This document shows, in pieces, positions 1,774 to 17,755 of a stretch of 64,000 bases of DNA. A program made the position numbers and the translations under genes. The notes under the pieces were generated by a model. That model did not search any database and was not told the DNA's origin. It worked only from the letters and a program-made list of their open reading frames with translations. Numbering within the stretch: position 1 is the stretch's first letter; each line of letters starts with the position of its first letter. The stretch covers positions 2,336,001 to 2,400,000 of the forward strand of contig OY970399.1 in the NCBI GenBank assembly GCA_963720545.1, written 5' to 3'. The DNA comes from an uncultured Acidobacteriota bacterium (GTDB lineage Bacteria > Acidobacteriota > Vicinamibacteria > Fen-336).

Positions 1774-3161
1774 TGTCCACCGCGCTCTTCCTCGCCGCGT
1801 TGCTGCTGGCCCAGGCCCCGGCACCGGCACCGACGCCCTCGCCGGACGTGAGGGCGCTGTTTCCAGAGCCCGAGGCGCCCCCCGAACCGCCGCCGCCCGC
1901 CCCGAGTGAAAACGGACCGCCAGGCATCGCCATCGGCGCGGGCGCGCTGCAGCCGTCGCTGGTCCTGTCGCTGATCCGCGGCGACATCTTTCCGAGCGCC
2001 ACCGCCGAACGCCCGTTCAAGGTGCGCGACACCTACTTCCAGATCGAGCCGCGCCTCAACTTCGTTTATCCGGTGGGCGCGGGCGGCGAGTTTCGCGCCG
2101 GTTACGAACCGGCGTTTCGCCGCGGCAGCGCCCTTCAAGAGGTGACAGCGTCGAGCCACCGGCTCGGCGCCGGGATCGAACTGCCGCTGGGAACGAGCTT
2201 CCTGCTGCGCGCCGCCGATCAGTGGTCGAAGGGCATCCTCGACGTCACCCAGGTGGATCCCGGCCAGGAATATTTCTTCCGCCTGCAGCCCTTCAGGCAC
2301 AACGTCTTCGACGTGAATGGCACGCTCGCGGGCGGCGACACCAGCATCGACGGCGGCGCCACCCTCAGCCGCGTCACGATCGAGCCCGGCTCGGGCTTCT
2401 TCTCGAACCGCTCGCAACAGTATTACGGCGGCATCAGCCGCAGCCTCGCCGCCACGCTGCGGCTGCGCCTCGGTTACACCCGCGAGCGCATCCCGCGCCC
2501 CATCGACCGGCCCGAGGTCGAGAGCCGCGCCAACATCTACACGCTCAGCCTCGACGGCACCCTGGCACCGCTGCTTGACGGGCAGATCTCGGCCGGCTAT
2601 CGCGACCAGAAGACGCCGAACGCCGGCGCCGGCGGCCGGAGCTTCAAGGGTCTGGTGGTCGCCGGGCGCCTCGAGAAGGAGTTCACGCGTTCGACCCGCC
2701 TCGCGCTCTGGGGCAGCCGCGACACCCGCGTGGACCTGCTGCGCCGCAACGGGCTCTACGCGACGACCGGCGGCCAGCCCGAAATCGCACTGCCCACCAC
2801 CTCCGCCTTCGAGGAGAACGCCTTCTACGTCGCCAAGGCATTCAACTCCGAGCTGCAGTTCGAGCTGCCTCTGCAACTCACGGCGCGCGCCGCGGCGCAG
2901 TGGCAGAACAACGAATACCGCACCGTCGCCTCGGCCATCGGCAAGCGGCGCAGCGACGATTTTTTCGGCTGGGCGCTGGGCTTCGGGCGTTCCCTCACAC
3001 GCCACGCCTGGGTGAGAATCGACTATCGTCGTGACCGCCGGGACTCCAACATCGACGTCTTCGACGTCAGGACCGAGGCGCTGCTGGTGCAGCTCGGCTT
3101 TGGCTTCCAGGGATCGCGCGGCCGGCCGAAATTCAGCGGCGGCAGCGAGAGCCAGGACTAG
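1773..3161 (+). CDS. Outer-membrane beta-barrel protein of exopolysaccharide export operon
   Basis: Signal peptide, Pro-rich linker, alternating amphipathic strands; sits between the WecA-like gene and wza with TGATG coupling. Confidence 0.7.
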   Translation: MSTALFLAALLLAQAPAPAPTPSPDVRALFPEPEAPPEPPPPAPSENGPPGIAIGAGALQPSLVLSLIRGDIFPSATAERPFKVRDTYFQIEPRLNFVYPVGAGGEFRAGYEPAFRRGSALQEVTASSHRLGAGIELPLGTSFLLRAADQWSKGILDVTQVDPGQEYFFRLQPFRHNVFDVNGTLAGGDTSIDGGATLSRVTIEPGSGFFSNRSQQYYGGISRSLAATLRLRLGYTRERIPRPIDRPEVESRANIYTLSLDGTLAPLLDGQISAGYRDQKTPNAGAGGRSFKGLVVAGRLEKEFTRSTRLALWGSRDTRVDLLRRNGLYATTGGQPEIALPTTSAFEENAFYVAKAFNSELQFELPLQLTARAAAQWQNNEYRTVASAIGKRRSDDFFGWALGFGRSLTRHAWVRIDYRRDRRDSNIDVFDVRTEALLVQLGFGFQGSRGRPKFSGGSESQD

Positions 3162-3165
3162 GCGG

Positions 3166-4029
3166 ATGAAACTACTGTTGCGCAGCGTCAGGTTCGCATC
3201 GCTCGCCGCCGGCCTGCTCCTCGGCCTGGTCGCGGAAAGCCGCGCCCAGGAAACCGCGGCCGCCGCGCCGGACGAGTATCGTCTCGGCGCCGGCGATGTC
3301 CTCGACGTCATCGTGATCGGCAACCAGGACGCCTCACGCGTCGCACCCATCGATCCCGGCGGCACCATCACGCTGCCGCTCGTCGGCGAGGTGCCGGTGG
3401 CCGGTCGCACCCTCGCGGAGGTGCGCCAGGAGGTGACGGCACTGCTCGCGAAGGACTACCTCGTGAACCCGCAGGTTGACGTGCGCATCAAGGAGTACGG
3501 CAGCCGTTTCGCGCTCGTCGTCGGCGAGATGCGCCAGCCGGGCCGGCGCCCACTGCGCGCCAACAGCCGGCTCATCGACGTGCTCATGGAGGCCGGCGGC
3601 TTCACGCCGCAGGCCTCGGGCGATGTGCTCATCACGCGCGTCGATGGCACGTTCCCGGACGGCAGCAAGAGCCTGCGCGTGCGCATCACCGCGCAGAACG
3701 CGACCGCAGCCGACCACGCCGGCGTCGAAACCACGCTGCACGCGGGCGACATCATCGTGGCGGCGCCCAAGGCCTACGTCATCGTCGAAGGCGAAGTCGC
3801 GCGTCCGGGGCGCTTCGTGATCGACGGCAACCTCACGATCACCGGCGGCATCTCCATCGCCGGCGGCCTCACCCGCTACGGCAGCAGCACCGTGAGGATC
3901 CGCCGCACCGATGCCGCGGGCAAGACCGCGATCACGGAGGTCGATCTGAAGGCGATTCGCAAGGGCAAGGCCGAAGACGTGCTGCTGCAGGCGGACGACG
4001 TCGTCAGCGTCAGCCGCCGCCGGTTCTAG
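3166..4029 (+). CDS. wza: Polysaccharide export protein (Wza/OPX; Poly_export + SLBB domains)
   Basis: YRLGAGDVLDV, GTITLPLVGEVPVAGRT, VEGEVARPG motifs; start moved to ATG 3166 (MKLLLRS signal peptide). Confidence 0.88.
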   Translation: MKLLLRSVRFASLAAGLLLGLVAESRAQETAAAAPDEYRLGAGDVLDVIVIGNQDASRVAPIDPGGTITLPLVGEVPVAGRTLAEVRQEVTALLAKDYLVNPQVDVRIKEYGSRFALVVGEMRQPGRRPLRANSRLIDVLMEAGGFTPQASGDVLITRVDGTFPDGSKSLRVRITAQNATAADHAGVETTLHAGDIIVAAPKAYVIVEGEVARPGRFVIDGNLTITGGISIAGGLTRYGSSTVRIRRTDAAGKTAITEVDLKAIRKGKAEDVLLQADDVVSVSRRRF

Positions 4030-4061
4030 GCGCCAGTGGCTTCGCCCATGGGGAGGACGTA

Positions 4062-6185
4062 GTGCCCGCACCGATCACGCTCGCATCGCCGCCAGGTCCG
4101 GCGCTGCCGGGTGCGCACGCCGAAGAGGCGCGCTTCGACCTGCGCTACTACGCGCACCTCCTGTGGCGCGCGCGGCTGCTGCTGGTGGCGGCCGCCCTCC
4201 TGGGCCTCGGGCTGATGACGCTCTACGGCTACCTGCAGACCCCGGTGTACCGCGCCAACGCCATGCTGCAGATCGAGCCGCCGACGCCGATGCTCATGAA
4301 CGTCACCGATTCGCTTCTCGGCAGCGGCTCGTTCTGGCAGAACGCCGACTTCTACAACACGCAGTTCAAGATCCTCAAGTCGCGGGGCCTGGGCGACAAG
4401 GTGGTGGCGGCGCTGAAGCTCGACGCGCAGCCCGAGTTCAAGGGCGCGCGCGATCCGGGCTCCATCTTCATGGGGCACGTCGAGATCGAGCCCATCCCGG
4501 AGAGCCGGCTCGTCAACGTCAGCATCCGCCACACCGACCCGCAAGCCGCGGCCGACTGGGCGAACGCGCTCGCCGACCTGTTCATCCGCGAATCGGTCGC
4601 CAACCGCATGCAGCAGGCGACGCAGGTGATGGACTGGCTCACCGAGCAGGTGAAGCAGACGCAGGCGTCGATGCAGACGGCGCAGACCGAGCTCATCCAG
4701 GGCCTGCAGCGCCGGGACCTCGCGACGACGCCGGGCGCGCAGTCGACGATGGACGCGTCGATCGAAAGGCTGCAGACCGAGTACCTGGAGGCCAAGACGC
4801 GGCGCATCACCATCGAGGCGGCGCTGACGCAGATCCGCGACCTGCGCAGCCGCGACCTCGGACTGCAGTCGGTGCCGCAGGTGGCGGCCGACCAGCAGAC
4901 CGCGGCGCTCGACGCCGAGCTCGCGGGTCTCGAGTCGCAGCTCTCCATCCTGCGCGGGCGCTTTCGCGAGGGCCACCCCGAAGTGCTGAAGGTGACGGCG
5001 CAGATCGCGCAGACCAGGCGCGCCGTCGCCGACCGGGCCAACGCGGTGGCGGCCGGGCTGCAGGCGGAATACACGCAGCTGCAGAAGCGCGAGTCCGAGC
5101 TGCAGGGCGCGATCGGCGGACAGCGTGCCGCCGCCGTCAACCAGTCGCGCGCCACCGCCGAGATGGAGACGCTGCGCAAGCGCACCGACTCCACCAAGAA
5201 CCTCTACGACGTGCTGCTGCAGAAGCTGAACGAGACCAACATCGCCGCCTCGATGCGCAACAGCAACGCCTCGGTGGTGGAGCGCGCCACCGTGCCGGTC
5301 GCGCCGGTGTGGCCCGACAAGCGCCGCATCGCGCTCTTCGGCCTCGGTGCGGGCCTGCTGGCTGGCGTCGGCCTGGTGCTGTTGCGCGATCACCTCGACA
5401 ACACCTTCAAGGATCCGGAGGAAGTCGAGCGCTACCTGCACACCGAACTGCTCGCGGCGATTCCCAGGGCCGGTGATCCGCGCCTGCTGACCGAGGCTTA
5501 CCAGAACCTGCGCACCGCGCTGCTGTTCGCGCGCCGCTCCGAAGAAGGCCAGATCGTGCTGATCACCGGCACGGCGCCGCAGGAAGGCAAGACCACGACG
5601 CTCGTGAACCTCGGCAAGCTGCTGGCGGCGGCGGGAGAGTCGACGATCCTCGTCGACTGCGACCTGCGGCGCGCGCAGGTGCACGATCGCCTGGGGCTGC
5701 CGCGCGAGCCAGGCGTCACCAACTACTTCACCCAGCACCTCGGCATCGACACCCTGGTGCAGTCGGGCGGCGCGCCCGCGCTCGCGGCGCTCACCGCCGG
5801 ACCGCTGCCGCCCAATCCGCCGGCGCTCCTCGCCCGCGGCCAGCTCGACAACCTGTTTGCCGAGCTGCGGCAGCGCTACCGGTGGATCCTCGTCGACTCA
5901 CCGCCGCTCGCCTCCGTGACCGACGCGCTGCTCCTGGCGCGCCGTTCGGACATGGTGGTCGTGATCGTCAAGCACAACGGCATCGACAAACGGCTGGTGC
6001 GCCGCGCCATTGGCGCGCTACGGCGGGTCGGCGCGCCGCTACTCGGCGTGGTACTGAACATGTTGGAACTGCACGTCGGCAACTACTACTACTACTATTA
6101 CAACCGGCAGGAGAGTCCGCCGGGCGCTGTACCGCAGGTCATCAAGCCCCACTTGCGGCGCGTCGCCGCAGGAGACGACCGCTAG
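4062..6185 (+). CDS. wzc: Polysaccharide co-polymerase / BY-kinase (Wzc/GumC)
   Basis: Two TM segments around coiled-coil region, EAYQNLRT, Walker A APQEGKTT, VDCDLRR, VDSPP, C-terminal Tyr cluster NYYYYYYN. Confidence 0.92.
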   Translation: MPAPITLASPPGPALPGAHAEEARFDLRYYAHLLWRARLLLVAAALLGLGLMTLYGYLQTPVYRANAMLQIEPPTPMLMNVTDSLLGSGSFWQNADFYNTQFKILKSRGLGDKVVAALKLDAQPEFKGARDPGSIFMGHVEIEPIPESRLVNVSIRHTDPQAAADWANALADLFIRESVANRMQQATQVMDWLTEQVKQTQASMQTAQTELIQGLQRRDLATTPGAQSTMDASIERLQTEYLEAKTRRITIEAALTQIRDLRSRDLGLQSVPQVAADQQTAALDAELAGLESQLSILRGRFREGHPEVLKVTAQIAQTRRAVADRANAVAAGLQAEYTQLQKRESELQGAIGGQRAAAVNQSRATAEMETLRKRTDSTKNLYDVLLQKLNETNIAASMRNSNASVVERATVPVAPVWPDKRRIALFGLGAGLLAGVGLVLLRDHLDNTFKDPEEVERYLHTELLAAIPRAGDPRLLTEAYQNLRTALLFARRSEEGQIVLITGTAPQEGKTTTLVNLGKLLAAAGESTILVDCDLRRAQVHDRLGLPREPGVTNYFTQHLGIDTLVQSGGAPALAALTAGPLPPNPPALLARGQLDNLFAELRQRYRWILVDSPPLASVTDALLLARRSDMVVVIVKHNGIDKRLVRRAIGALRRVGAPLLGVVLNMLELHVGNYYYYYYNRQESPPGAVPQVIKPHLRRVAAGDDR

Positions 6186-6206
6186 CAAAGCGCCGGATCG
6201 ACCCCG

Positions 6207-7565
6207 CTACTCCTGGCTCGACGGTGCGCTGGCCTGGACCGGGCTCGGGACTTCCGGGATCGGCACGAAGGGGGAGACGCCAGGAACCGTCGGCGGCTCG
6301 CCGGCAGTCGGAGCCGGCTGCCCGGGAACTGCGACGTGAGTGACCTGCTGTCCCGACGGCGGGTTGGGCTGGGGCGGTGCCACGTCCGCGCAGCTTGCGC
6401 CCATGCTGGCGCGGTTTTCCTTGCGCAGGAAATCAACGGCGTCGACCATCTTGCTGCGCGTGACCGGACCGTCCGGGCCGAGTTCGAGGCCGAGGCCCTT
6501 GAGGGCCGCGACGTACGCGTCCGCGCCGGCCTGCTTGCGCTGCACACGCACAGCTTCGACGGTGGAGTTGGGGCCGAGGCGCACCGCGACCGCGTGTGGG
6601 CCGGCAGTGAAGTCGGATGACAGCACCGGCGTCCATTCGCCCGCAGCGGTGCCGCGCCGCGAGCCGGTGCAGACCACTTGCTTCTTGCAGCCGTCTGCCG
6701 TCCACTGCTGCCCGCCGTTCAGGTTGCCCTTGACGGAGACGGTGTAGAGGCCGGCTTCGGGAACCTGGAACGTGAGCAGGCCTTCGGCGCCTTGCGGGCC
6801 GGAGTCGAAGTTGTCCGTAACGGCCGCCTGCCGCAGCGCCGGCAGGTAGCGTGCGATGGCGCTGCCCGGCAGGTCGAGCGGCACGCCGGCGGGGGCGAGT
6901 TCCGATTCCTTGTCGAGCGCGCGCAGCGTCGTCACCGCCACGTCGTCGGTGGTCGCGACCTTCGCGGTCTGCCAGCCGCCGAGCGGCTCGATGTTGGTGA
7001 CGCACGGCGGCACCACTTCGAAGCGATCGAGCGAAGTGCCGGGCGGCAGCAGCACCGAGGCGAGGTAAGCGCCGCCTGCGAGCTGCACGCGGCCGCCGTC
7101 GACCCAGGCCGCCTGCGCCGCGGGGCGCAGCGTGAACGTAGCGAGCGGCTTGTCGCCCTTGCGATCCGTCACTTCGACGGACGCCGGCTTGTCGGCCGGG
7201 CCGCTGAGGTGTGCGCGAATCTGGTATTCGCCGGGGCGTGCGACGGTGAGCGGATAGCTCGCCTGCCCGACGCCCGCTTCGGCGGCGACCGCGTTCGGCG
7301 GGTCGCCGAGCACGCGCACCGCATCGGCTTTCTCGAACTCGCTGCCCTTGAAAGCCAGGCTCGAGTGCCACGCGAGAGCGCCGAAGGCAACCGACGCCGT
7401 GTCCATTCCCGGGCTTTCGAGGTCGAGGCCACGCAGCATCATGCGCGCCCATTCCGGGTGGCTGACGGCGGACACCCGAGGGTCTCCGTAGAGCGGATAA
7501 AGCAGAGCGAAGCCGACGGTAACCGCAGCCGCGACCGCAATGCCGAGGGAGCTTTTCGACTGCAT
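6207..7565 (-). CDS. Hypothetical exported protein with two probable beta-sandwich (CBM-like) repeats and Pro-rich tail
   Basis: 452-aa ORF with N-terminal hydrophobic segment and GC3-rich codon usage; SD-like GAGG upstream. Confidence 0.7.
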   Translation of the reverse strand: MQSKSSLGIAVAAAVTVGFALLYPLYGDPRVSAVSHPEWARMMLRGLDLESPGMDTASVAFGALAWHSSLAFKGSEFEKADAVRVLGDPPNAVAAEAGVGQASYPLTVARPGEYQIRAHLSGPADKPASVEVTDRKGDKPLATFTLRPAAQAAWVDGGRVQLAGGAYLASVLLPPGTSLDRFEVVPPCVTNIEPLGGWQTAKVATTDDVAVTTLRALDKESELAPAGVPLDLPGSAIARYLPALRQAAVTDNFDSGPQGAEGLLTFQVPEAGLYTVSVKGNLNGGQQWTADGCKKQVVCTGSRRGTAAGEWTPVLSSDFTAGPHAVAVRLGPNSTVEAVRVQRKQAGADAYVAALKGLGLELGPDGPVTRSKMVDAVDFLRKENRASMGASCADVAPPQPNPPSGQQVTHVAVPGQPAPTAGEPPTVPGVSPFVPIPEVPSPVQASAPSSQE

Positions 7566-7590
7566 TACTTGCCTCGTCGGACCTTGGTTT

Positions 7591-7639
7591 TTGACAACTT
7601 GTCCACGGCTAACTTAGCCTCCGAGGCCAGGCATGTCAA
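7591..7639. promoter_or_regulatory. Overlapping divergent sigma70-like promoters
   Basis: Plus: TTGACA 7591-7596, 18 bp, TAGCCT 7615-7620. Minus: TTGACA 7639-7634, 17 bp, TAAGTT 7616-7611. Confidence 0.5.
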
Positions 7640-8691
7640 AGTGTATCCAACACACTCTCATAGACATAGCCCGGGTTCGTCACCTCAAGCGGGTGCCTTC
7701 CGGCATGCCCGGGAACGACCTTTGCCGCGCCGCCGAACGGCAGGGGGTCCTGGCCCTCTTCGGCCCCTCGAAACCACCCGTCTTCGCCGCCGCGATGGTG
7801 CGCGAGGCGGTGCGCACCACCCGGCTCCTCGACCTCGCGCTGCGCCTCCAGGCGCACCTCGAAACACTCGGTGTGCGCTCGCTCACTTTGAAGGGCGCAG
7901 CACTCCACGGCACGGCTTACCCGGATGTCGAGAGCCGTCCGATGGTCGACGCCGACCTGTTGGTGCTCGACGACATCGCGAGCGCCGAGGCGGCGGCGCG
8001 TTCGCTCGGCCTCGTGTTCGTCGAGCGCGCCGATCACGCCGTCGCGTATCGCGAACCCCGAAGTGGCGCGATGGTCGAGCTGCACTGGAGCGTCACCTCG
8101 GCGCCCGGGTTCTTTCCGGTCGACAAGGAATCGCTTTGGCGCGGCCGCCGCCGGCTCGCCACGGGCCTCTTGGCGCCGTCGGCCGCCGACACGCTGGTGC
8201 TGCTCGCGCTGCACGCGGCGTTTCAGCACGGCCTGGTGCTGCGGCTGGTGCAACACGGCGACTTCCACGCCTTGTTGGCGAGTGAGGGGCCCGATCCGCG
8301 GCGCATCGTCGCGCGCGCCGCCGAGTGGCGTGCGGGCCTCGCCGTGGTTGCTGCACTGCAGATCGCCGGCCACTTGCTCGGCACGCCGGACCGAGCGGCA
8401 GCGGTGCTCGCCGAGCTGCGCGATTTCCGGCTGCGCGGGCCGCTCGCGCGCCACGTCGCGAGCGCGGCGGAAACGCCCGAACGCTTTCTCGAGCCGGCCG
8501 AGCCGCGCCTCGCGATGGTGCGCCTCTCACTGGCGCGCGGGCACCGACTCGACCTCGTGCGCCGCACGCTCTGGCCGCTCTCGCCCGACGACGGGAGCGC
8601 GCGCGGCTTCACTCGCGCCGCTTTGGGCGTGCGCCGCGGCGCGCGCCTCGTCGGCCGCCATTTCGCCGGCTGGGCCGGCAGCGCGTCGTGA
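7633..8691 (+). CDS. Nucleotidyltransferase family protein (NTP_transf_5-like)
   Basis: LKGAAL..YP..SRPMVDADLLV and VELHW motifs, L..HAA.H further downstream; start codon uncertain. Confidence 0.8.
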   Translation: MSKCIQHTLIDIARVRHLKRVPSGMPGNDLCRAAERQGVLALFGPSKPPVFAAAMVREAVRTTRLLDLALRLQAHLETLGVRSLTLKGAALHGTAYPDVESRPMVDADLLVLDDIASAEAAARSLGLVFVERADHAVAYREPRSGAMVELHWSVTSAPGFFPVDKESLWRGRRRLATGLLAPSAADTLVLLALHAAFQHGLVLRLVQHGDFHALLASEGPDPRRIVARAAEWRAGLAVVAALQIAGHLLGTPDRAAAVLAELRDFRLRGPLARHVASAAETPERFLEPAEPRLAMVRLSLARGHRLDLVRRTLWPLSPDDGSARGFTRAALGVRRGARLVGRHFAGWAGSAS

Positions 8692-9119
8692 TCGATCACG
8701 ACGGCGCCGCGAGCGCAGCCGTCGCGCGCGAGGCCGTCGCGTTGAACCTCGCGGCCGCGGCCTCGGTGTGCATCCGCGTCAGCGGCCGCTGCATGGAACC
8801 GGCGCTGCTCGCGGGCGAACTGGTGGAGCTGCGGCGCACGCGGCCGCGGGTGGGCGACGTGGTGCTGGCGCAGCTGCCGCAGGGCCTGCGGCTGCATCGC
8901 CTGCTGCTGAAGCTGCCGCTCGGCGCTGGCTGGCGCACCAAGGGCGACCGCTGCGACCCGTGGGACGCGAAGATCTCCGGCCGCGAGGTGATCGCCACGG
9001 TGGTGCGCTCGTGCGCCACCGGCCGTACGCCCCATAGCCGCGGATTGGCTCTGCGTTCGCTCGCGTCTGCGCTACGCTGGCGCCTGCGCGTGCAGCGCAT
9101 CAAGCCGGAGGGACAATGA
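8688..9119 (+). CDS. S24/S26 peptidase-like protein (Cys at the canonical catalytic Ser position)
   Basis: VSGRCMEPAL..GDVV..LHRL..TKGD..D; GTG start overlaps upstream stop (GTGA). Confidence 0.72.
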   Translation: MIDHDGAASAAVAREAVALNLAAAASVCIRVSGRCMEPALLAGELVELRRTRPRVGDVVLAQLPQGLRLHRLLLKLPLGAGWRTKGDRCDPWDAKISGREVIATVVRSCATGRTPHSRGLALRSLASALRWRLRVQRIKPEGQ

Positions 9120-9433
9120 CGCACAACCCGCTGCGCACCATCTACGCGCGCTCCGACCGCATCGTCGGCCGGCGTATCGGCCCGGAGTTCGTGCTGGTGC
9201 CGCTCGTCGGCCACGGCGCCGAGCTCGAGGCGATCTACAACCTCGGCGGCGCGGGCGTCTTCATCTGGGAGCGGATCGACGGCCGCACCGACGGCGACAC
9301 CATCGTCGACGAGATGATCGCGGCGTTCGACGTGCAGCGCCCGGAAGCGGCGGAAGACTACGCGACCTTTACCCGCCACCTCGTCGAGATCGGCGCCCTG
9401 AAGGTGGTTTCGGCGCCGATCCGCCGGAAATGA
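9116..9433 (+). CDS. Stand-alone PqqD-family RiPP recognition element (RRE)
   Basis: RRIGPEFVLVP..IYNLGGAGVFIWERIDG..IVDEM..FDV..A..D...F...LVEIGAL pattern; ATGA-coupled. Confidence 0.88.
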   Translation: MTHNPLRTIYARSDRIVGRRIGPEFVLVPLVGHGAELEAIYNLGGAGVFIWERIDGRTDGDTIVDEMIAAFDVQRPEAAEDYATFTRHLVEIGALKVVSAPIRRK

Positions 9434-10301
9434 TCGCGCCCACGGCTGCCACCGCCGAGGCGTCCTTGCGAAAGGCGAGCGAGTAGCTCGGCACCGCGCG
9501 CGCGAAGCTCTCTGCGGTGCGCAGCACCGCGAAGAAGGCAGCCGGCTCCCACGGCGGCAGGAACGAAAAGGCCAGCAGCTGGCTGGCGAAGCCCTGCGGC
9601 TCGATGCGCGTGAGCGCGGTGGTGCGCGACTGCTTCAGCACGAACAGTGCCCGCAGCCGCAACGCGCGCGGCGCGGCATGGCGCGCGGTGCCGTGCCACG
9701 GCGTGCCGTACGCCCACCACTGACCGCGCCGCCGGCGGATCACGAGACGATCGTCGCTCAACACGCTGGCGAGCGGAGCATGCCGGCGAAACAGGCGGCT
9801 GATCGTGGACTTGCCCGCCCCCGAATGGCCGGTGAACGCCACCAGGCCGCGGCCGGTGTCGACGCCGCTCGCATGCAGCACCAAGCCGCCGTCGTAGGCG
9901 AAGTGGTGCTGCAGCAGCAGCTCGTCGAGCGGGAACGAAAGCGCGAAGCCGCGGTGAGCGAGGTACTCGCCCGGCGCCAGGTAGAGCGTGCCACGGCGGC
10001 GGCGACGGTCGATGAGGAGGCCGCGTGCCGGCGGGCCCTTGCCCATGGGGCGGCGAAAGACGTAAAGGATCTTCGCGCCGACTTCGTACGCGCGCCAGGT
10101 TCCGCCCGATTCGAAGACCGGTGCTGCGTCTGGCACCGGCACCGGCGCCAGCACCACCTCGAGGTCGATGTCGGCGCCGCTTTTTGCGCCGAACGCTTCG
10201 TAGCCGCGTGGCAGGCGCAGCGCCGGTGCCCTGGTGTCGTAGCGGAGCCTGATGGTCCTGCCGCCGATGCGCAGCCGCAGGCTGTGGGCGCGCCGCCGCA
10301 G
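9369..10301 (-). CDS. HPr-kinase-like P-loop protein (ScmC-like RiPP accessory)
   Basis: LHASGV, Walker A GHSGAGKST, LSDDR and YGTPWHG motifs in the 3' part of ORF 9369..11513; start uncertain (no ATG; CTG at 10301 just after the rSAM stop). Confidence 0.75.
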   Translation of the reverse strand: MRRRAHSLRLRIGGRTIRLRYDTRAPALRLPRGYEAFGAKSGADIDLEVVLAPVPVPDAAPVFESGGTWRAYEVGAKILYVFRRPMGKGPPARGLLIDRRRRRGTLYLAPGEYLAHRGFALSFPLDELLLQHHFAYDGGLVLHASGVDTGRGLVAFTGHSGAGKSTISRLFRRHAPLASVLSDDRLVIRRRRGQWWAYGTPWHGTARHAAPRALRLRALFVLKQSRTTALTRIEPQGFASQLLAFSFLPPWEPAAFFAVLRTAESFARAVPSYSLAFRKDASAVAAVGAIISGGSAPKPPSGRRSRRGGG

Positions 10302-10306
10302 GACGG

Positions 10307-11587
10307 CTAGCTGCGGGCCGCGGCCGCTGCGGCGCGGACCGGGCGCTCGATCTGGATCAGCGCTTGCGCCTGCGGCTGCGCGGGTTCCGAGTGGCTGCAC
10401 GAACCGCAGCCGCCGAGGTGAATCTCGGCATCGGGTCGCGCGGCGAGCACGCCCGCTCCGACGCAGCACGTCGCGTCGCGGCGATGGCCGCTGTCCTTGC
10501 CGAGCGCCGCGAACGCGCGCAGGTGCGTGACCTCGCAGAAGTTGCGCAGCAGCGCCGTCGGGTCGCCGGTGGCAAGCTCGGCCGAACCCGGGCAGTTGCC
10601 GCAGCCGCTGCGCAGCGTGCACGACTGGCATACCGAGTTGTCCTGCCACTGGCGCGAGCGAGCCTGCGGCAGGAACTCGTTCCAGCCGGTGTCGAAGCTG
10701 CCTTGCTTCAGGTCGTAGGAAGCCTTGCGCGCCAGCTGGCACAACTGCAGCTGGCCATAGGGATCGACGGTGAACGACATCTGCCCGGCGCCGCACTCGA
10801 ACACCTGCTCGGCCACGGCGATGCGCACCTCGCCGCCCGCGGCCGCCGCCGCCGGCGCAAAGGCGTTCCAGATCTTCGCGCGGGTCAACTCGTCCGCGAG
10901 GTCCACCGCGAGAATGTCCTCGGCGTTCACCTGCAGCTCGCCGTTGCGGTTGGCGCCGCAGTCGACGCGCGCGTTCAGCAGGCTGTCGTGGCGGAAGCTG
11001 GTGCCGAGGTTCGCGGCGAAAGCGCGCATCGCCTCGATCTCGTGGACGTTCCAGGAGAGCACCATGGTCTTGAGCTTGAGGTTCAGGCCGCGGCGATAGA
11101 GGCGCTCGATGCCGGCTATGCACTTCTCGAACGAGCCCGGCACGCGGGTGACGCGGTCGTAGGTCGCCTTCGTCATCCCGTAGAGCGTGACCTCGATGGC
11201 GGCGGGACGATGCGCGCTGAGGAAGTCGGCGATGTCCTCGGTGACCATGGTCGCGTTGGTGAAGATGCCGACGCGCAGGCCGCGGCCCAGCGCGTGCAGG
11301 TAGATCTGCCTGAAGTCCCTGCGGATCAGGACCTCGCCGCCGGTGAGCAGCAGCTCGAAGGCGCCGGCGTCCGCCACCTCGTCGATCAGCGTCTTCACCC
11401 GTTCCGTCGACAGCTCGCGGCGCATCTCTTCCGCGTCGCCCGCCGGCTTGTTGACGTAGCAGTGGACGCAGTTGAGGTTGCAGCGGAAGGAGGTCTCGAT
11501 GGTTCCGTCCCACGGCAGACGCCGGCCGCTGACGTCGAGGCTGTGGGCGAAATCGGCGATCGAGATTTCGTCGAGTACGGTCGTCAT
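10307..11587 (-). CDS. Radical SAM/SPASM domain peptide maturase
   Basis: CNLNCVHC, LTGGE, SPASM CGAG..VDPYG..C and CQSC...CGNCPG...C. Confidence 0.92.
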   Translation of the reverse strand: MTTVLDEISIADFAHSLDVSGRRLPWDGTIETSFRCNLNCVHCYVNKPAGDAEEMRRELSTERVKTLIDEVADAGAFELLLTGGEVLIRRDFRQIYLHALGRGLRVGIFTNATMVTEDIADFLSAHRPAAIEVTLYGMTKATYDRVTRVPGSFEKCIAGIERLYRRGLNLKLKTMVLSWNVHEIEAMRAFAANLGTSFRHDSLLNARVDCGANRNGELQVNAEDILAVDLADELTRAKIWNAFAPAAAAAGGEVRIAVAEQVFECGAGQMSFTVDPYGQLQLCQLARKASYDLKQGSFDTGWNEFLPQARSRQWQDNSVCQSCTLRSGCGNCPGSAELATGDPTALLRNFCEVTHLRAFAALGKDSGHRRDATCCVGAGVLAARPDAEIHLGGCGSCSHSEPAQPQAQALIQIERPVRAAAAAARS

Positions 11588-11612
11588 CCGGGCTTCCCGA
11601 GCCCCGCGCGGG

Positions 11613-11774
11613 CTAGCTGCCCTGAGCCGAGTTGATGAGGGTGCCGCCGCGGTTGCAGACGTTCGCGGACACCATGTTTCGCTTGCAGCCCGTCACGGCC
11701 AGCTCATCGGCAACAAGGTTCACTTTGCGAATCCGGGGTGTCTCGTAAGTGGCCTTCGCCTGCTTCGTCTTCAT
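11613..11774 (-). CDS. Putative RiPP precursor, 53 aa (MKTKQAKATYETPRIRKVNLVADELAVTGCKRNMVSANVCNRGGTLINSAQGS)
   Basis: Translated by hand; GGAAGAGGAG SD before ATG 11774; YxxPxI RRE-binding-type motif; co-oriented 25 bp upstream of the rSAM gene. Confidence 0.85.
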   Translation of the reverse strand: MKTKQAKATYETPRIRKVNLVADELAVTGCKRNMVSANVCNRGGTLINSAQGS

Positions 11775-11801
11775 TGACTCCTCTTCCGGCTCGACGGCTC
11801 G

Positions 11802-11872
11802 GGTAGCCTAAGCCCTACCTCGCGCGGGTGTAAAGCCGCGCGTTGACACTGTGCTCTGCCTCACGCTACCCT
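11802..11872. promoter_or_regulatory. Back-to-back sigma70-like promoters for the precursor operon and fur, with two inverted repeats
   Basis: Minus: TTTACA 11834-11829, 18 bp, TAGGCT 11810-11805. Plus: TTGACA 11843-11848, 18 bp, TACCCT 11867-11872. IRs GGTAG-N8-CTACC and CGCGCGG-N8-CCGCGCG. Confidence 0.5.
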
Positions 11873-11886
11873 CGCCATTCGAAAAA

Positions 11887-12375
11887 GTGAGCGCCCGGGG
11901 AAAGAACGAAACGGCCCGCGAAGAGCGCGAAGTCCTCACCGCGCACCTCGCGGCCAACGGCCTGAAACGCAGCGCCCAGAGAGACGCCGTGGTCGAGGTG
12001 TTCTTCCGCTCCGACAGCCACCTCTCGGTGGACGACCTGCTGAAGCTGGTGAAGCGCAAGAACCCGGCGGTGGGACGCACCACCGTCTATCGCACCTTGA
12101 AGCTGCTCACCGCCGCCGGCCTCGCGACCGAGCTGCAGCTGCGCGGCGAGACCCGCTTCGAGCGCGAATACAAGCGCCACCATCACGACCACTTCATCTG
12201 CAACGGCTGCGGCGCGATCTTCGAGTTCTCGAACGACGAGATCGAGCGCGCTCAGGACGATGCCGCGCAGGAGATCGGCTTCACCATCCAGGGCCACCGC
12301 CACCAGATCTTCGGCTTGTGCGCCGCGTGCACGGCCAAGGCGGCGGCGCCGCACGCCGCATCCCGGCCCGCCTAA
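11887..12375 (+). CDS. fur: Fur-family transcriptional regulator
   Basis: TTVYRTLKLL helix, HHHDHFICNGCG and GLCAAC; start at GTG 11887 chosen from the promoter position; Fur vs Zur vs PerR not resolved. Confidence 0.9.
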   Translation: MSARGKNETAREEREVLTAHLAANGLKRSAQRDAVVEVFFRSDSHLSVDDLLKLVKRKNPAVGRTTVYRTLKLLTAAGLATELQLRGETRFEREYKRHHHDHFICNGCGAIFEFSNDEIERAQDDAAQEIGFTIQGHRHQIFGLCAACTAKAAAPHAASRPA

Positions 12376-12396
12376 CGTGCTGGACAGCCCGCGCGG

Positions 12397-13506
12397 GTGA
12401 GGATCGACCGCGTCGAGGTACGAGAAATCCGGCTGCCGCTGCTGCACCCGTTCGAGACCTCGTTCGGCCGCACCACCGAGAAGGTGTTCCTGCTGGTGTC
12501 GGTGTCTGCCGACGGGGTCACCGGTTACGGCGAGTGCGTCACCGATCCCGATCCCTTCTACCTGCCCGAGACGAACGGCACGGTCGCGCACATCCTGCGC
12601 GACTTCCTGGTGCCATTGGTGCTCGGCCGCGAACTGGCCGGGCCCATGGACGCGTGGCCGGCGCTGGCGCGGGTGCGCGGTCACAACATGGCGAAGGCCT
12701 GCCTCGAGATGGCGATCTGGGAATTGTGCGCCCGTCGCGACTCGCTGCCGCTCTACAAGCTGCTCGGCGGCCGCGGCGGCCGCATCGCTTCGGGCGTCTC
12801 GATCGGCCTGCAGCCGAGCGCCGCGACCCTGGTGCAAAAGGTCGCTCTCGAGGTGGCAGCCGGCTACCGCCGCATCAAGGTCAAGATCAAGCGCGGCCAG
12901 GACCTCGAGCTCGCCGCGGCGGTGCGCGCCGAGTTTCCCAAGGTGCCGCTGATGGTGGACGCCAACAGCGATTACCACCTCGGCGATGCCGCGCACCTGC
13001 AGAAGCTCGACGCCTTCGACCTGATGATGATCGAGCAGCCGCTCGCGTGGAACGACATCGGCGACCACGCCATCCTGCAGCGGCAGCTGCAGACTCCGGT
13101 GTGCCTCGACGAGTCGATCGGCGGCCCCGAGGACACGCGCCTCGCCCTGCAGCTTCGGGCATGCCGCATCATCAACATCAAGGTGGGGCGGGTCGGCGGC
13201 TTCGCGATGGCACGCCAGGTGGAAGCGGCGTGCCGCGCCGCCGCGGTGCCGGTGTGGTGCGGCGGCATGCTCGAGTCGGGCATCGGGCGCCTCGCGAACG
13301 TCCACCTGCAGACGCTGCCCGGCTTCACGCTTCCCGGCGACACCTCGGCGAGCGCGCGCTACTTCGCCGAGGACCTCGTCGATCCGCCGGTCACCGTGAG
13401 CCCGCAGGGCGAGATCGACGTTCCCGAGCGTCCCGGGATCGGCCACGAGGTGGTCTCTTCGCGGGTCGAGAAGGCGACGCAGTGGCGCGAGGAATGGCGC
13501 GCCTGA
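12397..13506 (+). CDS. menC: o-Succinylbenzoate synthase / N-succinylamino acid racemase (enolase superfamily)
   Basis: PFETSFG, KVK, VDAN, IEQP, LDES, INIKVGRVGG, WCGGMLESGIGR, PGDTSAS. Confidence 0.85.
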   Translation: MRIDRVEVREIRLPLLHPFETSFGRTTEKVFLLVSVSADGVTGYGECVTDPDPFYLPETNGTVAHILRDFLVPLVLGRELAGPMDAWPALARVRGHNMAKACLEMAIWELCARRDSLPLYKLLGGRGGRIASGVSIGLQPSAATLVQKVALEVAAGYRRIKVKIKRGQDLELAAAVRAEFPKVPLMVDANSDYHLGDAAHLQKLDAFDLMMIEQPLAWNDIGDHAILQRQLQTPVCLDESIGGPEDTRLALQLRACRIINIKVGRVGGFAMARQVEAACRAAAVPVWCGGMLESGIGRLANVHLQTLPGFTLPGDTSASARYFAEDLVDPPVTVSPQGEIDVPERPGIGHEVVSSRVEKATQWREEWRA

Positions 13507-14713
13507 GCGCTTCACCCACCAGGTAGAGGCTGCCCGCAACCACCACGGTTTCGCCGCTGCGCGCGAGACGCCGTGCGAGCGCCAGCGCCGATTGAGTGCC
13601 GGGCGCCGCGCGCAGGCGCTTGCCGAAGCCGAGCGCCGCGACGCGCCTGCGAATTTGCGCTGGCGTCGCGGCGCGCTTGTTGCGCGGCCGCGTCAGGATG
13701 ACGACGCGCGCCAGCGGAAAGAGCGCACGCGCGCTGGCTTCGATGTCCTTGTCGGCCATCATGCCGAAGACGAGCACCACCGGGGCGAGCGGCCGCAGGT
13801 GCGCCGCGAGCGCGCGCGCGGCGGCCGGGTTGTGGGCGCCGTCGAGGAGCAGCGGCGGCACGCCGCCGAGCTGCTGCAGGCGGCCGGGCCACTGCACGCT
13901 GGAGACGGCGGCAGCGGCGCGCGCAAGCTGCACTCCCAGCCCAGCCTGCCGCGCGGCTTCCAACACCCGCAGCGCCACCTCGAGGTTCTGCCGCTGGTGC
14001 CGGCCGGGGAGCGACGCGGCGCCCGGAAATCGCCGCCGCGTGCCGCGCGCCGCGACCAGGCGCGCACCCGCGCGCCGTGCCTCGCGCTCGACCGTGCGCA
14101 GTGCCGCGGCCGGCAGGGGACCGCGCACGGTCACCACACCGCGCCGCATCACTCCGGCCTTCTCGCGCGCGATCGCCGCGAGCGTCGTGCCGAGATACGC
14201 CTCATGGTCGCGGTCGATGCTGACGATCGCCGACACCAGCGGCGCCACCACGTTGGTCGCATCGAGCCGGCCGCCGAGGCCCACTTCGAGGACCATGGCA
14301 TCGACCCCGCGCGCGGCGAACTCGAGGAACGCGGCCGCGGTCAACACTTCGAAATGAGTCGGCTGGGCGGTGAGCCCGCCGCGCGCGACGAGCGCGTTCG
14401 CGGCCGCGCGCACCCTCTGCAGGTGCCGGCCGAGCGCCGCGCTCGAGATGTCACGGCCGTCGACGGCGATCCGTTCGTTCACCGCGACGAGGTGCGGCGA
14501 GATGTAGCGTCCGGTGCGCAGGCCCGAGGCGCGCAGCACCGCGTCGAGGTACGCCACCACCGAGCCCTTGCCGTTGGTGCCGGCGATGAGCAGCGCCGGT
14601 GCGCAGCGGTGCGGGTCGCGCAACTCGTGGAGCAGCGCGCGCATCGCGTCGAGGCCGAACTTCATGCCGAAGCGGGCGCGGCTGTCGAGGTAGCGCGAGA
14701 CCGAAAACGCCAT
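13391..14713 (-). CDS. folC: Folylpolyglutamate/dihydrofolate synthase
   Basis: IAGTNGKGS, SPHL, EVGLGGRLDATN, EKAGV, WPGR, DGAHNP, GSLYLVG. Confidence 0.93.
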   Translation of the reverse strand: MAFSVSRYLDSRARFGMKFGLDAMRALLHELRDPHRCAPALLIAGTNGKGSVVAYLDAVLRASGLRTGRYISPHLVAVNERIAVDGRDISSAALGRHLQRVRAAANALVARGGLTAQPTHFEVLTAAAFLEFAARGVDAMVLEVGLGGRLDATNVVAPLVSAIVSIDRDHEAYLGTTLAAIAREKAGVMRRGVVTVRGPLPAAALRTVEREARRAGARLVAARGTRRRFPGAASLPGRHQRQNLEVALRVLEAARQAGLGVQLARAAAAVSSVQWPGRLQQLGGVPPLLLDGAHNPAAARALAAHLRPLAPVVLVFGMMADKDIEASARALFPLARVVILTRPRNKRAATPAQIRRRVAALGFGKRLRAAPGTQSALALARRLARSGETVVVAGSLYLVGEALRRAIPRATASPSRPAKRPPRGRSRDARERRSRPAGSR

Positions 14714-14798
14714 GCGGGGAACCGCGATTCTCCCAGCAATTCTGAGGACTTGCTGAGGATCGCGGCGCGCGCACAGTCGTAATATCGGCCCAACAACC

Positions 14799-16640
14799 AT
14801 GCCGATGCCGATGAGGCCGACCGCCTGGCTGGCGCTTTTGTCGCTGGTGCTCGCGCCGCCTGCGCTCGCCGACGAAAAACCGGGCGCGCAGAAGAAGGAG
14901 CAGACGCCGGTCGGCACCTGGACCGTGGAACAGCAGCAGGCGCCGCCCAAGGAGGGCAGCCTCTACGAGGAAGCGCTGCGCGCGGCGCCGATCCTCTGGT
15001 TCTCCGACGACGAGCCGCTCCTCAAGGTGCGCAACGGCACCCGCCTCTTCATCCCCGGACCGCTGCCGTGCGACCCCGCGGCCGACCGCGACCGGCCGGT
15101 CGTCTACTACAAGCTCGACAACGTGCGCGTCAACCGGGCGCTCAAGCCCTACGAGCGCACCGCGGTGTACGAGGGGCGGCTGCCGCTCGACTCGATCCGC
15201 CACATGCGCATCAACTACTACTTCTATTACCCCGAGGACAAGGGCCTCGAGCCGCACATCCACGACATCGAGAGCATCAGCATCGAGCTCGACGTCGAGC
15301 GCGACAAGCAGGGACGCGCGCGCGTCGAGCGCAACCGCGTCACCGGCTGGGCGCACGGCTCGGAGCTGATGGCGAACATCCTGCAGATCAAGCCGAGCCT
15401 GCGCAGCGGCAGCGGCGCGCCCGACACCCGCTCGCCGATCACCATCCTGGTGGAGGAGGGCAAGCACGCGAGCTCGCCCGACCGCAACGGCGACGGCGTC
15501 TACACCCCGGGCGTCGACGTCAACGTGCGCGTCGCCGATGCCTGGGGCATTCGCGACGTGTTCGGCAGTGGCGTCATCGGCTCGCGCTACCAGGCGCAGA
15601 TGAGCAAGAACCGCCTGACGCCGGTGATGGCGGGCACCCTGGAGCTGACGCGCGGCCTCGACGACCTCGCGCGCCAGATGGCTGAACTACGGAAGCGCGT
15701 GGACAACGCACCTGCTCCCGCACCCTCGCCCGCGGCAGCCATCGCGGCCGCCCAGGAGGCCGCGGCGCAGGCCACGTTCGATCCCGGCCGCTACCGCATC
15801 GGCCCGAAGCTGCCAGCCGACCACAAGGTGCTGCAGACCTACGAAGAGGAGCGCCTCGTGAATGGCGGCCTCGAGTACCCGAGCGTGCAATACCAGCTGC
15901 GCGACATCACCAGGATCGGCGACGCGCCCTGCGCGACCGAGCCCGCACCGTTTCCGCGCGGCTTCAAGAAGCCGGCCGACGGCGTCGCCGACGACCACGG
16001 CCGGCTCGACTGGAAGCGCCAGGGTCACATCTTCGCGGCTGCCTGCCCCGAACCCGAGACGCCGCACGACACCACAGGCCGCGTCGACGCCGGCGAGGAC
16101 GCAATCCTCATTCCGGAGCCCGACAGCTGCGGCTACCTCAACCTGCCGGCTTCGGTTGCCGAGCTGCAGGGCCGGCCGCCGATCAACCGCAGCAAGTTCA
16201 CGTACAAGTACGGCAAGTGGTGGCCAATCCAGCCGTTTCGCAACGCCTTTCTCGGCGCGCGCTACGACCGCGGCGGCAAGGGCATCACGGCCGGCTTCTA
16301 CTCCGGCTATGGTCTGCCCAAGGTCGGCGGCTGGTTCAACGCCGGCGTCACCATGGTGCGCCGCCAGGAGCACTGGGTGATCGCGACCAACGTCTGGTTC
16401 ACGCCGTCGATCGCGACTCTCGCCACCTGGTATGCGGGCGTCGGCTACGACAACGAAAACAAGTCGCTCGCGGACACCACCGGACATTTCGCGCTCGAGG
16501 GCGGCGTCCAGGTGCGCCACAACGTCCTTGGGTTACGGATCGGCGTGCGCTCGCGCCTGTCGAGCGGCGGCCTGCGCAACTCGGGCATCGTCAGCGAGTT
16601 CGTGTTTGGCCCGACGCCGCGAGGGACGCGGGTCCATTAG
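14799..16640 (+). CDS. Hypothetical exported protein (613 aa) with beta-strand-rich C-terminus
   Basis: Signal peptide ending ALA, strong GC3 bias, YYFYYP..H.HDIE and DRNGDG motifs. Confidence 0.75.
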   Translation: MPMPMRPTAWLALLSLVLAPPALADEKPGAQKKEQTPVGTWTVEQQQAPPKEGSLYEEALRAAPILWFSDDEPLLKVRNGTRLFIPGPLPCDPAADRDRPVVYYKLDNVRVNRALKPYERTAVYEGRLPLDSIRHMRINYYFYYPEDKGLEPHIHDIESISIELDVERDKQGRARVERNRVTGWAHGSELMANILQIKPSLRSGSGAPDTRSPITILVEEGKHASSPDRNGDGVYTPGVDVNVRVADAWGIRDVFGSGVIGSRYQAQMSKNRLTPVMAGTLELTRGLDDLARQMAELRKRVDNAPAPAPSPAAAIAAAQEAAAQATFDPGRYRIGPKLPADHKVLQTYEEERLVNGGLEYPSVQYQLRDITRIGDAPCATEPAPFPRGFKKPADGVADDHGRLDWKRQGHIFAAACPEPETPHDTTGRVDAGEDAILIPEPDSCGYLNLPASVAELQGRPPINRSKFTYKYGKWWPIQPFRNAFLGARYDRGGKGITAGFYSGYGLPKVGGWFNAGVTMVRRQEHWVIATNVWFTPSIATLATWYAGVGYDNENKSLADTTGHFALEGGVQVRHNVLGLRIGVRSRLSSGGLRNSGIVSEFVFGPTPRGTRVH

Positions 16641-16776: not shown

Positions 16777-17202
16777 GTGTTCAAAGGCACTTACCGCTAC
16801 AAGATCGACCCGAAAGGACGCCTTCCGGTGCCGCCGGCGTTTCGCCGCGCGCTCGCCCGGCAGGGCCAGTCGCTGGTGGTGACGCCGCTCGATTCCTGCC
16901 TCGCCGTCTACACCGAAACCGAGTGGGAAAGGCTGCGCCAGCAGCTCGAGAGCCTGCCGGCCTTTTCTCGCCAGGCGCTCACGCTCACCCGGCTGGTGGC
17001 GAGCCGTGCGGTCGATGCGGCACTCGACGTCCAGGGCCGCCTGCTGTTGCCGGCGCCGCTGCGCTCCGCCGCGCATCTCACCCGCGACGCGGTCGTCGTC
17101 GGGGTCTTGAGCCGGTTCGAGATCTGGGGCGCCGCCTCCTGGGACAGCTTCGTGAAGGACGCCGAGAAGCTCCTCGACGAAGCCGGGTTTCCGGGAGTGT
17201 GA
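16777..17202 (+). CDS. mraZ: MraZ transcriptional regulator, paralogue 1
   Basis: MFKG..IDPKGRLPVP and LDVQGRLLLP..LR..VVVG..FEIW. Confidence 0.9.
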   Translation: MFKGTYRYKIDPKGRLPVPPAFRRALARQGQSLVVTPLDSCLAVYTETEWERLRQQLESLPAFSRQALTLTRLVASRAVDAALDVQGRLLLPAPLRSAAHLTRDAVVVGVLSRFEIWGAASWDSFVKDAEKLLDEAGFPGV

Positions 17203-17251
17203 TCCAGCTTTCTTCCACAGGCTAGGTCCCGTCTTTCGTTCGCTTTTCGCC

Positions 17252-17310
17252 TTGACTAAGGTTCCGACGGGCCCATAGACTCGCCGTGGCTTTTTGTGGG
17301 CGAAAGTGGG
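17252..17310 (+). promoter_or_regulatory. sigma70-like promoter with three 10-bp-phased GTGG MraZ boxes
   Basis: TTGACT 17252, 18 bp, TAGACT 17276; GTGG at 17286, 17296 and 17306. Confidence 0.65.
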
Positions 17311-17311
17311 C

Positions 17312-17755
17312 ATGCTTCGCGGTAATCATCCAGCTCGGGTCGACGACAAGGGACGCCTCAAGATCCCCAACGGATTTCGCTCGTTCATCACGTCCCAGCA
17401 CGGCACCGAGCTGTTCGTCACGAGCCTCAGCGGCGAGCACGTCCGCATCTATCCCATGCCGATCTGGCTCGAGATCGAGCGCAAGCTTCTGACCGTCCCG
17501 TCCACCAACCCGTCGCGGGCCCGCTTCCTCGACCGGGTGAACTTCTTCGGCCAGGCCGTTTCGCTCGACCCGCAGGGCCGGGTACTGCTGCCGCAGCTGC
17601 TGCGCGAACGCGCCGCGATGCAGGGCGACGTCTGCGTCCTCGGCCTGCAGAACCAGCTCGCCGTGTGGAACAAGGAGCGCCTCAGCGAGCGGCTCTTCAA
17701 GCAGGACCCGTTCACCGACGAGGACGCCCGCGCGCTCTCGGAGTTCGGGATCTGA
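17312..17755 (+). CDS. mraZ: MraZ transcriptional regulator, paralogue 2
   Basis: MLRG..VDDKGRLKIP and LDPQGRVLLP..LRE..VLG..VW. Confidence 0.92.
   Translation: MLRGNHPARVDDKGRLKIPNGFRSFITSQHGTELFVTSLSGEHVRIYPMPIWLEIERKLLTVPSTNPSRARFLDRVNFFGQAVSLDPQGRVLLPQLLRERAAMQGDVCVLGLQNQLAVWNKERLSERLFKQDPFTDEDARALSEFGI

Follow-up and report, generated by a model that had tools for sequence, protein, structure and literature searches.

Does a reading frame of 53 codons, directly upstream of a radical SAM (rSAM) gene, encode a real peptide, and what would the genes around it do to that peptide? The question arises in a 64,000-nt stretch of acidobacterial DNA (hereafter the window), for which a preliminary description had pointed to a hidden precursor absent from the list of ORFs. 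Indeed, the frame is omitted with a threshold of 80 aa and appears when this threshold is lowered. It lies on the minus strand, with an ATG at 11774 and a TAG ending at 11613, and the plus strand of the same interval holds an unrelated frame. The encoded peptide presents the RRE motif Y10-x-x-P13-x-I15 (11747-11730), followed by E24, C30-K31, C40, N48 and the C-terminal pair G52-S53. The motif had been assigned to the YxxPxL type: Tyr10 and Pro13 are present as described, but the actual motif, YETPxI, is of the form YxxPxI. The preliminary description was right about Cys30, Cys40 and a core devoid of F, W, Y and H, as well as about the 25 bp that separate the stop codon from the ATG of the rSAM gene at 11587. 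The G+C of the ORF by codon position (0.54/0.48/0.83) follows the pattern of its neighbours and includes a coding-type GC3 (0.86-0.93 in the six neighbouring genes). This ORF is the only place in the 4.09-Mb genome where the family signature matches, and a search of the genome found no paralogous precursor elsewhere, such that the gene is single-copy.

We analyzed the conservation of the ORF beside homologues of the rSAM, a check that had been proposed together with the initial claim. Searching with the rSAM alone yielded nine loci, and a peptide homologue was found directly upstream of the enzyme in all seven loci of Acidobacteriota and directly downstream in both loci of Chloroflexota. Profiles of the peptide identified it in 29 of 301 Acidobacteriota genomes and in 13 of 251 Chloroflexota genomes. 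At E 0.01, 75 of the 301 class genomes present a match, a count that takes in weak matches inside long ORFs, and our conclusions on the peptide family rest on inspected loci only. An rSAM gene lies within 1.5 kb of the peptide in 30/30 of the best class-level loci (a set that includes the window and repeats of L001-L007) and in 28/28 of the phylum-level loci fetched, 27 of which also possess the kinase. A peptide match adjoins every one of the best 25 rSAM matches in the 301 genomes; among ten genomes with weaker rSAM matches, five present a divergent peptide and five present none. The peptide profile detected no peptide in the rSAM-positive genomes G307, G325, G340, G455 and G563, and no rSAM relative was found on plasmids at E 1e-30. 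These results demonstrate that the 53-codon ORF is a real, conserved gene, and the sequences suggest that it likely encodes the substrate peptide of the accompanying enzyme set.

The residues of the peptide are conserved very unequally. In alignments built with HMMs, Tyr10, Pro13, Cys30, Lys31 and Cys40 are invariant, and Glu24 and Ser53 are nearly so. A larger set of 232 distinct peptides was gathered with the pattern [YW]xxP-x16-CK, which itself fixes the counts of CK and YxxP. These peptides contain Tyr in 231 cases, Glu at Tyr+14 in 229, Gly as the second-last residue in 223 and Ser as the last residue in 230 (Thr in the other two). Three Cys are present in 189 peptides and two in 43. At position -6, 182 of the 232 peptides have Cys, and 36 of the 43 two-Cys peptides have Asn, as does the window (Asn48). 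In every row of alignments A2 and A3, the first Cys is followed by Lys; CR, CN and CH variants exist, and 9 of the 13 Chloroflexota genomes present Arg, Asn or His instead of this Lys. Seven Chloroflexota genomes present CR for CK and peptides ending in CFS or CFT, where the terminal Gly is lost and Ser or Thr is still last; in two of the 13 (L148 and L149), the kinase gene adjoins a peptide that does not end in Ser or Thr.

The Pfam and NCBIfam copies that we searched contain no precursor model for this family: no family was assigned to the 34 peptides of A2 (four unrelated single matches), nor by NCBIfam to eight more divergent peptides. Searching PDB sequences with the peptide profile returned chance matches only. 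In the ESM Atlas, the peptide falls near unnamed clusters (0.92-0.93), and the nearest named clusters are lasso leaders (0.77-0.81), which we treat as a lead only. AlphaFold2 applied to the lone peptide was uninformative (pLDDT 66, pTM 0.24, no secondary structure). Several loci depart from the usual arrangement. The Chloroflexota genome G591 (L139, L151-L156) contains seven near-identical precursor copies ending in Gly-Thr, one of which was seen beside the enzymes, and two tandem copies occur in single cassettes at L008:9084-9437 and L102:9855-10240. A DDE transposase separates peptide and rSAM at L097:10138-11049, and five loci (L127, L128, L130, L132 and L133) are three-rSAM variants with an rSAM-kinase fusion ORF (~670 aa) and longer peptides of 4-5 Cys.

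Downstream of the peptide on the minus strand are the genes of a radical SAM/SPASM enzyme (426 aa; 11587-10307) and of an HprK-like kinase (~310 aa; 10301-9369). Three plus-strand genes converge on them: an NTP_transf_5 nucleotidyltransferase (PF14907; 7633-8691), an S24/S26 signal-peptidase-like protein (8688-9119) and a stand-alone PqqD/RRE protein (9116-9433). Next to these are a minus-strand gene for a 452-aa protein without Pfam or NCBIfam match (6207-7565), which also adjoins the nucleotidyltransferase-S24-PqqD genes in family-level relatives, at L068, L092, L096 and L108-L112, and a plus-strand polysaccharide locus (GT4, WecA/MraY-like, outer-membrane barrel, Wza and Wzc; 43-6185), which is linked in close relatives but not in the majority of distant ones. 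No exporter or ABC transporter was found among the 15 genes scanned from 43 to 16640. On the other side, a plus-strand gene (14799-16640) encodes a protein of 613 aa that begins like a signal peptide and matches no Pfam or NCBIfam model, and two tandem MraZ-like genes (16777-17755, plus strand) precede an rsmH-ftsL-ftsI cell-wall cluster, these being named from their translations.

Two close relatives, L068 and L096, present the gene order wzc, the gene of the 452-aa protein, nucleotidyltransferase, S24, PqqD, peptide, rSAM, kinase, C25, fur and menC, all co-directional except the gene of the 452-aa protein. The window presents the same flanks, but its peptide-rSAM-kinase block is inverted and the C25 gene is absent. 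These shared flanks and the inverted block indicate that the convergent RRE, proposed earlier as the peptide's partner, belongs to the same cassette; PqqD is usually co-directional with the peptide in relatives. The 3' ends of the PqqD and kinase genes overlap by 65 bp (9369-9433), and this overlap is probably the inversion junction. We further examined two sets of 20 stretches of 20 kb, the first drawn from the 32 matches of the phylum search and the second from the class-level search at E 0.01, both favouring long contigs. The rSAM was found in 20 and 19 of them, the kinase in 19 and 18, PqqD in 18 and 14, S24 in 16 and 10, and C25 in 14 and 8, respectively. The nucleotidyltransferase (within 10 kb) was found in 5/20 and 7/20, and polysaccharide genes in 5/20 and 3/20. 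The nucleotidyltransferase, S24 and PqqD genes were found together elsewhere, as one module, in all five genomes with a lone peptide-rSAM-kinase group, a comparison made without a negative control.

A quick IQ-TREE search with 45 rSAM enzymes placed the nine enzymes that accompany two-Cys peptides, including that of the window, on one branch (SH-aLRT 97) inside the three-Cys relatives. On this branch, His and Ser/Ala/Thr are found where sister enzymes have Phe200 and Phe242. Because the two-Cys branch is single and nested, we take the window to carry a derived two-Cys subtype, defined by one enzyme clade, by Asn48 at the position of the third Cys and by a peptidase with a Cys nucleophile.

The first step of the pathway would be recognition of the leader. 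The RRE protein matches PF05402 (49 bits), and the best solved relatives of its profile are the lasso/LPP RREs TbiB1, PbaB1, TfuB1 and LppB. Its D81 and F85 correspond to D70 and F74 of LppB, and 33 of 34 relatives retain this Tyr-binding Asp. The column of LppB N33 is Asn in 28 of the 34 and is Gly44 in the window; the substitution N33A almost abolished binding in LppB (PMC13381572). Judging from these residues, the RRE of the window is likely to bind the leader, perhaps more weakly given Gly44, and we regard recognition of YETPxI by this stand-alone protein as highly probable.

The rSAM enzyme possesses the C36/C40/C43 SAM motif and no N-terminal RRE. Its seven SPASM Cys (265, 283, 320, 323, 329, 332 and 351) are invariant or near-invariant and leave one auxiliary-cluster site open, a feature associated with thioether-forming enzymes, CteB and SkfB among them. 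The sactisynthase SkfB is the best solved match both by profile (E 1.8e-28) and by the fold of the predicted structure (pLDDT 87.8). However, this match is weak (20% identity, TM 0.53), and similar scores were obtained for SuiB, PqqE, MoaA and BlsE. Among the NCBIfam models, NirJ2 (135 bits), AhbD (119) and MftC (119) score best, ahead of the sacti/ranthi models StsB (89) and PapB (58), and the curated maturase models are all under their cut-offs. With so weak a match to SkfB, and with NirJ2, MftC and AhbD scoring far under their cut-offs, these comparisons do not settle the type of reaction. Thioether formation on the peptide's Cys nevertheless appears likely, since Cys is the conserved chemistry of the core, most relatives have an odd number of Cys and no column is aromatic. 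Cyclophane chemistry was rejected as unlikely for lack of a conserved aromatic residue: none is found in the core of the window, as had been argued, and an aromatic residue occurs at any one core column in at most 16% of the 232 cores. We thus slightly favour a second step in which the enzyme would convert Cys30 and/or Cys40 into thioethers, with Asn48, at the relatives' third-Cys position, as the most likely partner of Cys40, through either its alpha or its beta carbon. The Cys-rich tail of the enzyme (10307-10470, minus strand; CC at 374-375 and GGCGSC at 392-397) is kept in about half of the 45 relatives and is poorly modelled; it possibly forms an extra metal site.

MftC and AhbD decarboxylate their substrates. 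Alternatively, then, the enzyme might make no thioether: the Cys would form a disulfide or bind a metal, and the enzyme would act on Lys31 (through a C-C or C-S link) or oxidatively decarboxylate the C-terminal (phospho)Ser. This alternative, the chief competitor of thioether formation although we find it rather unlikely, is consistent with the rank of NirJ2, AhbD and MftC above StsB and PapB, although all these scores are far under cut-off. The constant Lys in A2 and A3 would suit a Lys-based link, but its replacement in most of the Chloroflexota genomes argues against one. The peptide of the window, with its even number of Cys and the turn-like NRGG that separates Cys40 from a hydrophobic strand, could accommodate a disulfide; the three Cys of most relatives could not be consumed by disulfides alone.

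Thioether formation, our preferred reading, would be followed by modification of the C-terminus. The kinase retains H143, K164, D183 and D184, and this His-Lys-Asp-Asp motif is the one reported for kinases acting on the C-terminal Ser of lasso precursors (PMC9266682). The kinase frame offers no ATG, GTG or TTG close to the end of the rSAM gene, and relatives use TTG or GTG as start codons at the equivalent site, which makes the CTG at 10301, 5 nt past the rSAM stop, the likely start of the kinase. By analogy with paeninodin, the near-invariant Ser53 and the HprK-like kinase likely constitute a phosphorylation pair, and we consider (poly)phosphorylation of Ser53 a probable third step. In lasso systems, PsmN-type transferases then lead to a hexose on the C-terminal Ser phosphate (PMC9266682, PMC6993621). 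The nucleotidyltransferase of the window contains D106-x-D108, and a fourth step, in which it would cap or activate the Ser53 phosphate for sugar attachment, is a tentative proposal that falls a little short of an even chance.

Removal of the leader would fall to the S26-like peptidase, in which Cys35 occupies the position of the catalytic Ser and His70 and Asp87 are kept (16.4 bits against TIGR02228, cut-off 51.85). Across 23 aligned rows, the nucleophile column contains Cys in 11, Ser in 11 and a gap in one. The preliminary description had placed the end of the leader near ELAVT/G. This boundary was not retained: the column of Thr28 is variable (T/A/G/S/I/V/Q), and the position of the nearly invariant Glu24 points elsewhere. 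Signal peptidases favour small residues at -1, unlike the Leu, Met or Val found at the -1 position predicted from Glu24. In LPP, the SpI-like peptidase cleaves behind Thr-1, and Tyr-16 and Glu-2 are spaced 14 residues apart (PMC13381572). Glu24 falls in the register of Glu-2, which would place the cut between L25 and A26 rather than after Thr28. We give this fifth step, which would release a 28-residue core (A26-S53), about even odds because of the unusual -1 residue, also unlike the Thr-1 of LPP. Without modification, the calculated monoisotopic masses are 5691.96 for the whole peptide, 2807.36 for A26-S53, 2536.21 for G29-S53 and 2479.18 for C30-S53.

Building on the observed gene, its conservation, its cassette, the retained catalytic residues and the two subtypes, we consider it moderately probable that the locus encodes an uncharacterised RiPP pathway whose product would be a cell-envelope peptide with cross-linked cysteines and a phosphorylated C-terminus. 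The preliminary description did not include the near-invariant C-terminal Ser or the HprK-like kinase beside it, nor did it mention the Cys nucleophile of the peptidase, the association with C25 or the predominance of three-Cys forms. We counted against this pathway that Asn at -6 is kept in only 36/43 two-Cys peptides, the ends of the L148 and L149 peptides, Gly44, the odd -1 residue, the sparse linkage of nucleotidyltransferase and polysaccharide genes, and the absence of an exporter at 43-16640.

Several parts of this cassette recall the linear polyphosphorylated peptides (LPP; LppA/B/K/S/N/D) of Bacillota (Popov et al. 2026, PMC13381572). In LPP as in the window, a stand-alone RRE with its Tyr-binding Asp, an HprK-like kinase and an NTP transferase accompany a YxxP leader with Glu 14 residues after Tyr, in a polysaccharide-locus setting. 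LPP also use an SpI-like serine peptidase, to which the S26-like protein of the window would correspond. The differences are substantial. The cassette of the window includes, in addition, a radical SAM/SPASM enzyme and a core that contains Cys, its conserved Ser is C-terminal whereas the LPP phospho-Ser is at core position 3 (S3T is not phosphorylated by LppK), and it lacks a nearby counterpart of the MsbA-like transporter of LPP, whose product is linear. It further differs by the Cys-for-Ser peptidase of the window lineage, the C25 association and its phyla. Relative to the LPP leader consensus YxxPxVLxHQxIxFETxxS, only Tyr, Pro, the hydrophobic residue at +5 and Glu at +14 match, and position +18 is the variable Thr28. 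The family was thus not assigned to LPP, given the mismatch in leader consensus, phosphosite, exporter and linear product without a cyclising enzyme. The words 'Radical', 'rSAM' and 'SPASM' are absent from the main text of PMC13381572; in its neighbour matrix, where column heads alone were compared, Radical_SAM and Peptidase_C25 are two of 834 heads.

The lasso peptides of the paeninodin/pseudomycoidin type (PadeK, PsmK, PsmN) share the conserved C-terminal Ser, the His-Lys-Asp-Asp kinase, a DxD nucleotidyltransferase of the same description, a lasso-type RRE and a YxxP leader (PMC9266682, PMC6993621). In contrast, a search of the locus found neither macrolactam synthetase C nor protease B2, and residues 26-53 contain no Asp or Glu, hence no acceptor at core positions 7-9; lasso membership was rejected on these grounds, and ring formation, if any, would be radical-based in the system of the window. 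Sacti- and ranthipeptides (SkfB, CteB, PapB) have in common a Cys-containing core and a SPASM enzyme with seven auxiliary Cys, but the identity to SkfB is low, the rSAM of the window has no fused RRE, and its partners are a kinase, a nucleotidyltransferase and an S26-like peptidase. PMC13692751 deals with another system.

The SynChlorMet cassette (NCBIfam TIGR04248-TIGR04252) also combines PqqD, rSAM/SPASM, a kinase-like protein and a Cys-rich small peptide, but the window has one rSAM instead of two. Every SynChlorMet model scores far under its cut-off on the proteins of the window (ScmE 88/400 bits, ScmF 75/400, ScmC 22/125 and ScmD 30/100), and ScmA has no match at the peptide ORF even at E 1, which led us to reject this membership. 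The locus L121 contains a true ScmE (521 bits, cut-off 400) together with a divergent peptide of the family and an rSAM homologous to that of the window, which shows that the two types of cassettes are related. A literature search that reached few of the subscription journals found no description of the cassette beyond the LPP and lasso papers. By analogy, the cassette seems to work like the phosphopeptide logic of LPP and paeninodin with a radical SAM step added, outside LPP, lasso and SynChlorMet, and a widespread family would thus join the two chemistries. What is new in the window is that the enzymes of the two-Cys/Asn48 subtype form a single clade, that Glu gives a register for the predicted cleavage, and that the block is locally inverted, with C25 relocated. 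Since the complete six-gene set is found in one genome, its chemistry is directly accessible by co-expression.

A further partner may be a protease. A giant Peptidase_C25 protein is encoded within the 20-kb locus in 14/20 phylum-level loci (10 families) and in 8/9 of the other two-Cys loci. All 13 scanned large neighbour proteins of one cluster end in Peptidase_C25, often after DUF11 or SdrD repeats, and the catalytic His and Cys are kept in 12/12 aligned domains. At the genome scale, C25 was found in 27 of the 29 peptide-bearing genomes against 104 of the 272 without the peptide, a comparison in which related genomes are not independent. The sole C25 gene of the window genome (~1270 aa; G000:C1:350521-354474) has a signal-peptide-like start and lies beside metK, 2 Mb from the cassette, its C25 domain spanning 353449-354468. 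Its best matches among the fetched loci are the cassette-adjacent proteins of two-Cys loci (37-41% over ~770 aa), which is suggestive of orthology with them.

These associations raise the possibility, which we judge unlikely as a whole, that the mature peptide serves the giant C25 protease as a partner (an inhibitor, an activator or an acyl acceptor) and is not a free secreted product. The recurrent linkage and the retained catalytic pair agree with such a role; against it, the C25 gene of the window genome is distant from the cassette and C25 is common in the phylum (131/301 genomes), with kin again not independent. PorU belongs to C25. It is a transpeptidase that attaches A-LPS to its cargo (PMC8545088), and it provides the model for a broader scheme in which the cassette would build the peptide linker of a bacterial system comparable to GPI or PorU anchoring. 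The kinase and the nucleotidyltransferase would activate the C-terminal phosphoserine for a phosphodiester to a surface glycan, the rSAM would rigidify the linker, and the giant C25 protein, acting as a transpeptidase on a free amine (the new N-terminus or Lys31), would attach itself or further large proteins to the polysaccharide; the two-Cys/Asn48 subtype of the window with its Cys-nucleophile signal peptidase would be a derived form. Taken jointly, these parts make an improbable whole. The links of our favoured pathway, that of a cross-linked phosphopeptide, with polysaccharide loci and giant C25 proteins bear on the role of phosphorylated RiPPs in capsule loci.

Finally, we examined the signals that could drive expression of the peptide. 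A Shine-Dalgarno-like GGAAGAGGAG is located at 11787-11778 on the minus strand, 3 nt before the ATG, as the preliminary description had claimed. That description had also proposed a promoter for the gene itself. By eye, TTTACA (11834-11829) and TAGGCT (11810-11805), separated by 18 nt on the minus strand, match 8 of 12 positions, and a similar -10 hexamer, TA[AG][AG][AC]T, is found upstream in 18 of 33 distinct peptide loci (a pattern picked post hoc and without shuffle control); a sigma-70 scan, however, called no promoter, and we consider this promoter plausible. The sole RNA run found (share 0.06) yielded one 261-nt contig on the rSAM and none on the peptide, which says nothing either way. 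That the ORF arose as a chance frame, acts as a regulatory leader or is the decaying remnant of a gene, rather than being a translated substrate, could be argued from this lack of RNA coverage, the short Shine-Dalgarno spacing, the uncalled promoter and the local inversion and Gly44 change as marks of decay, but residue-level conservation in two phyla, the fixed Tyr-to-Cys spacing, the coding-type GC3 and the intact catalytic residues of all partners largely refute this idea and make it extremely improbable. A GC-rich inverted repeat overlaps the -35 box of the peptide's candidate promoter. Back to back with the latter, a perfect TTGACA followed after 18 nt by TACCCT (11843-11872, plus strand) forms a candidate fur promoter.
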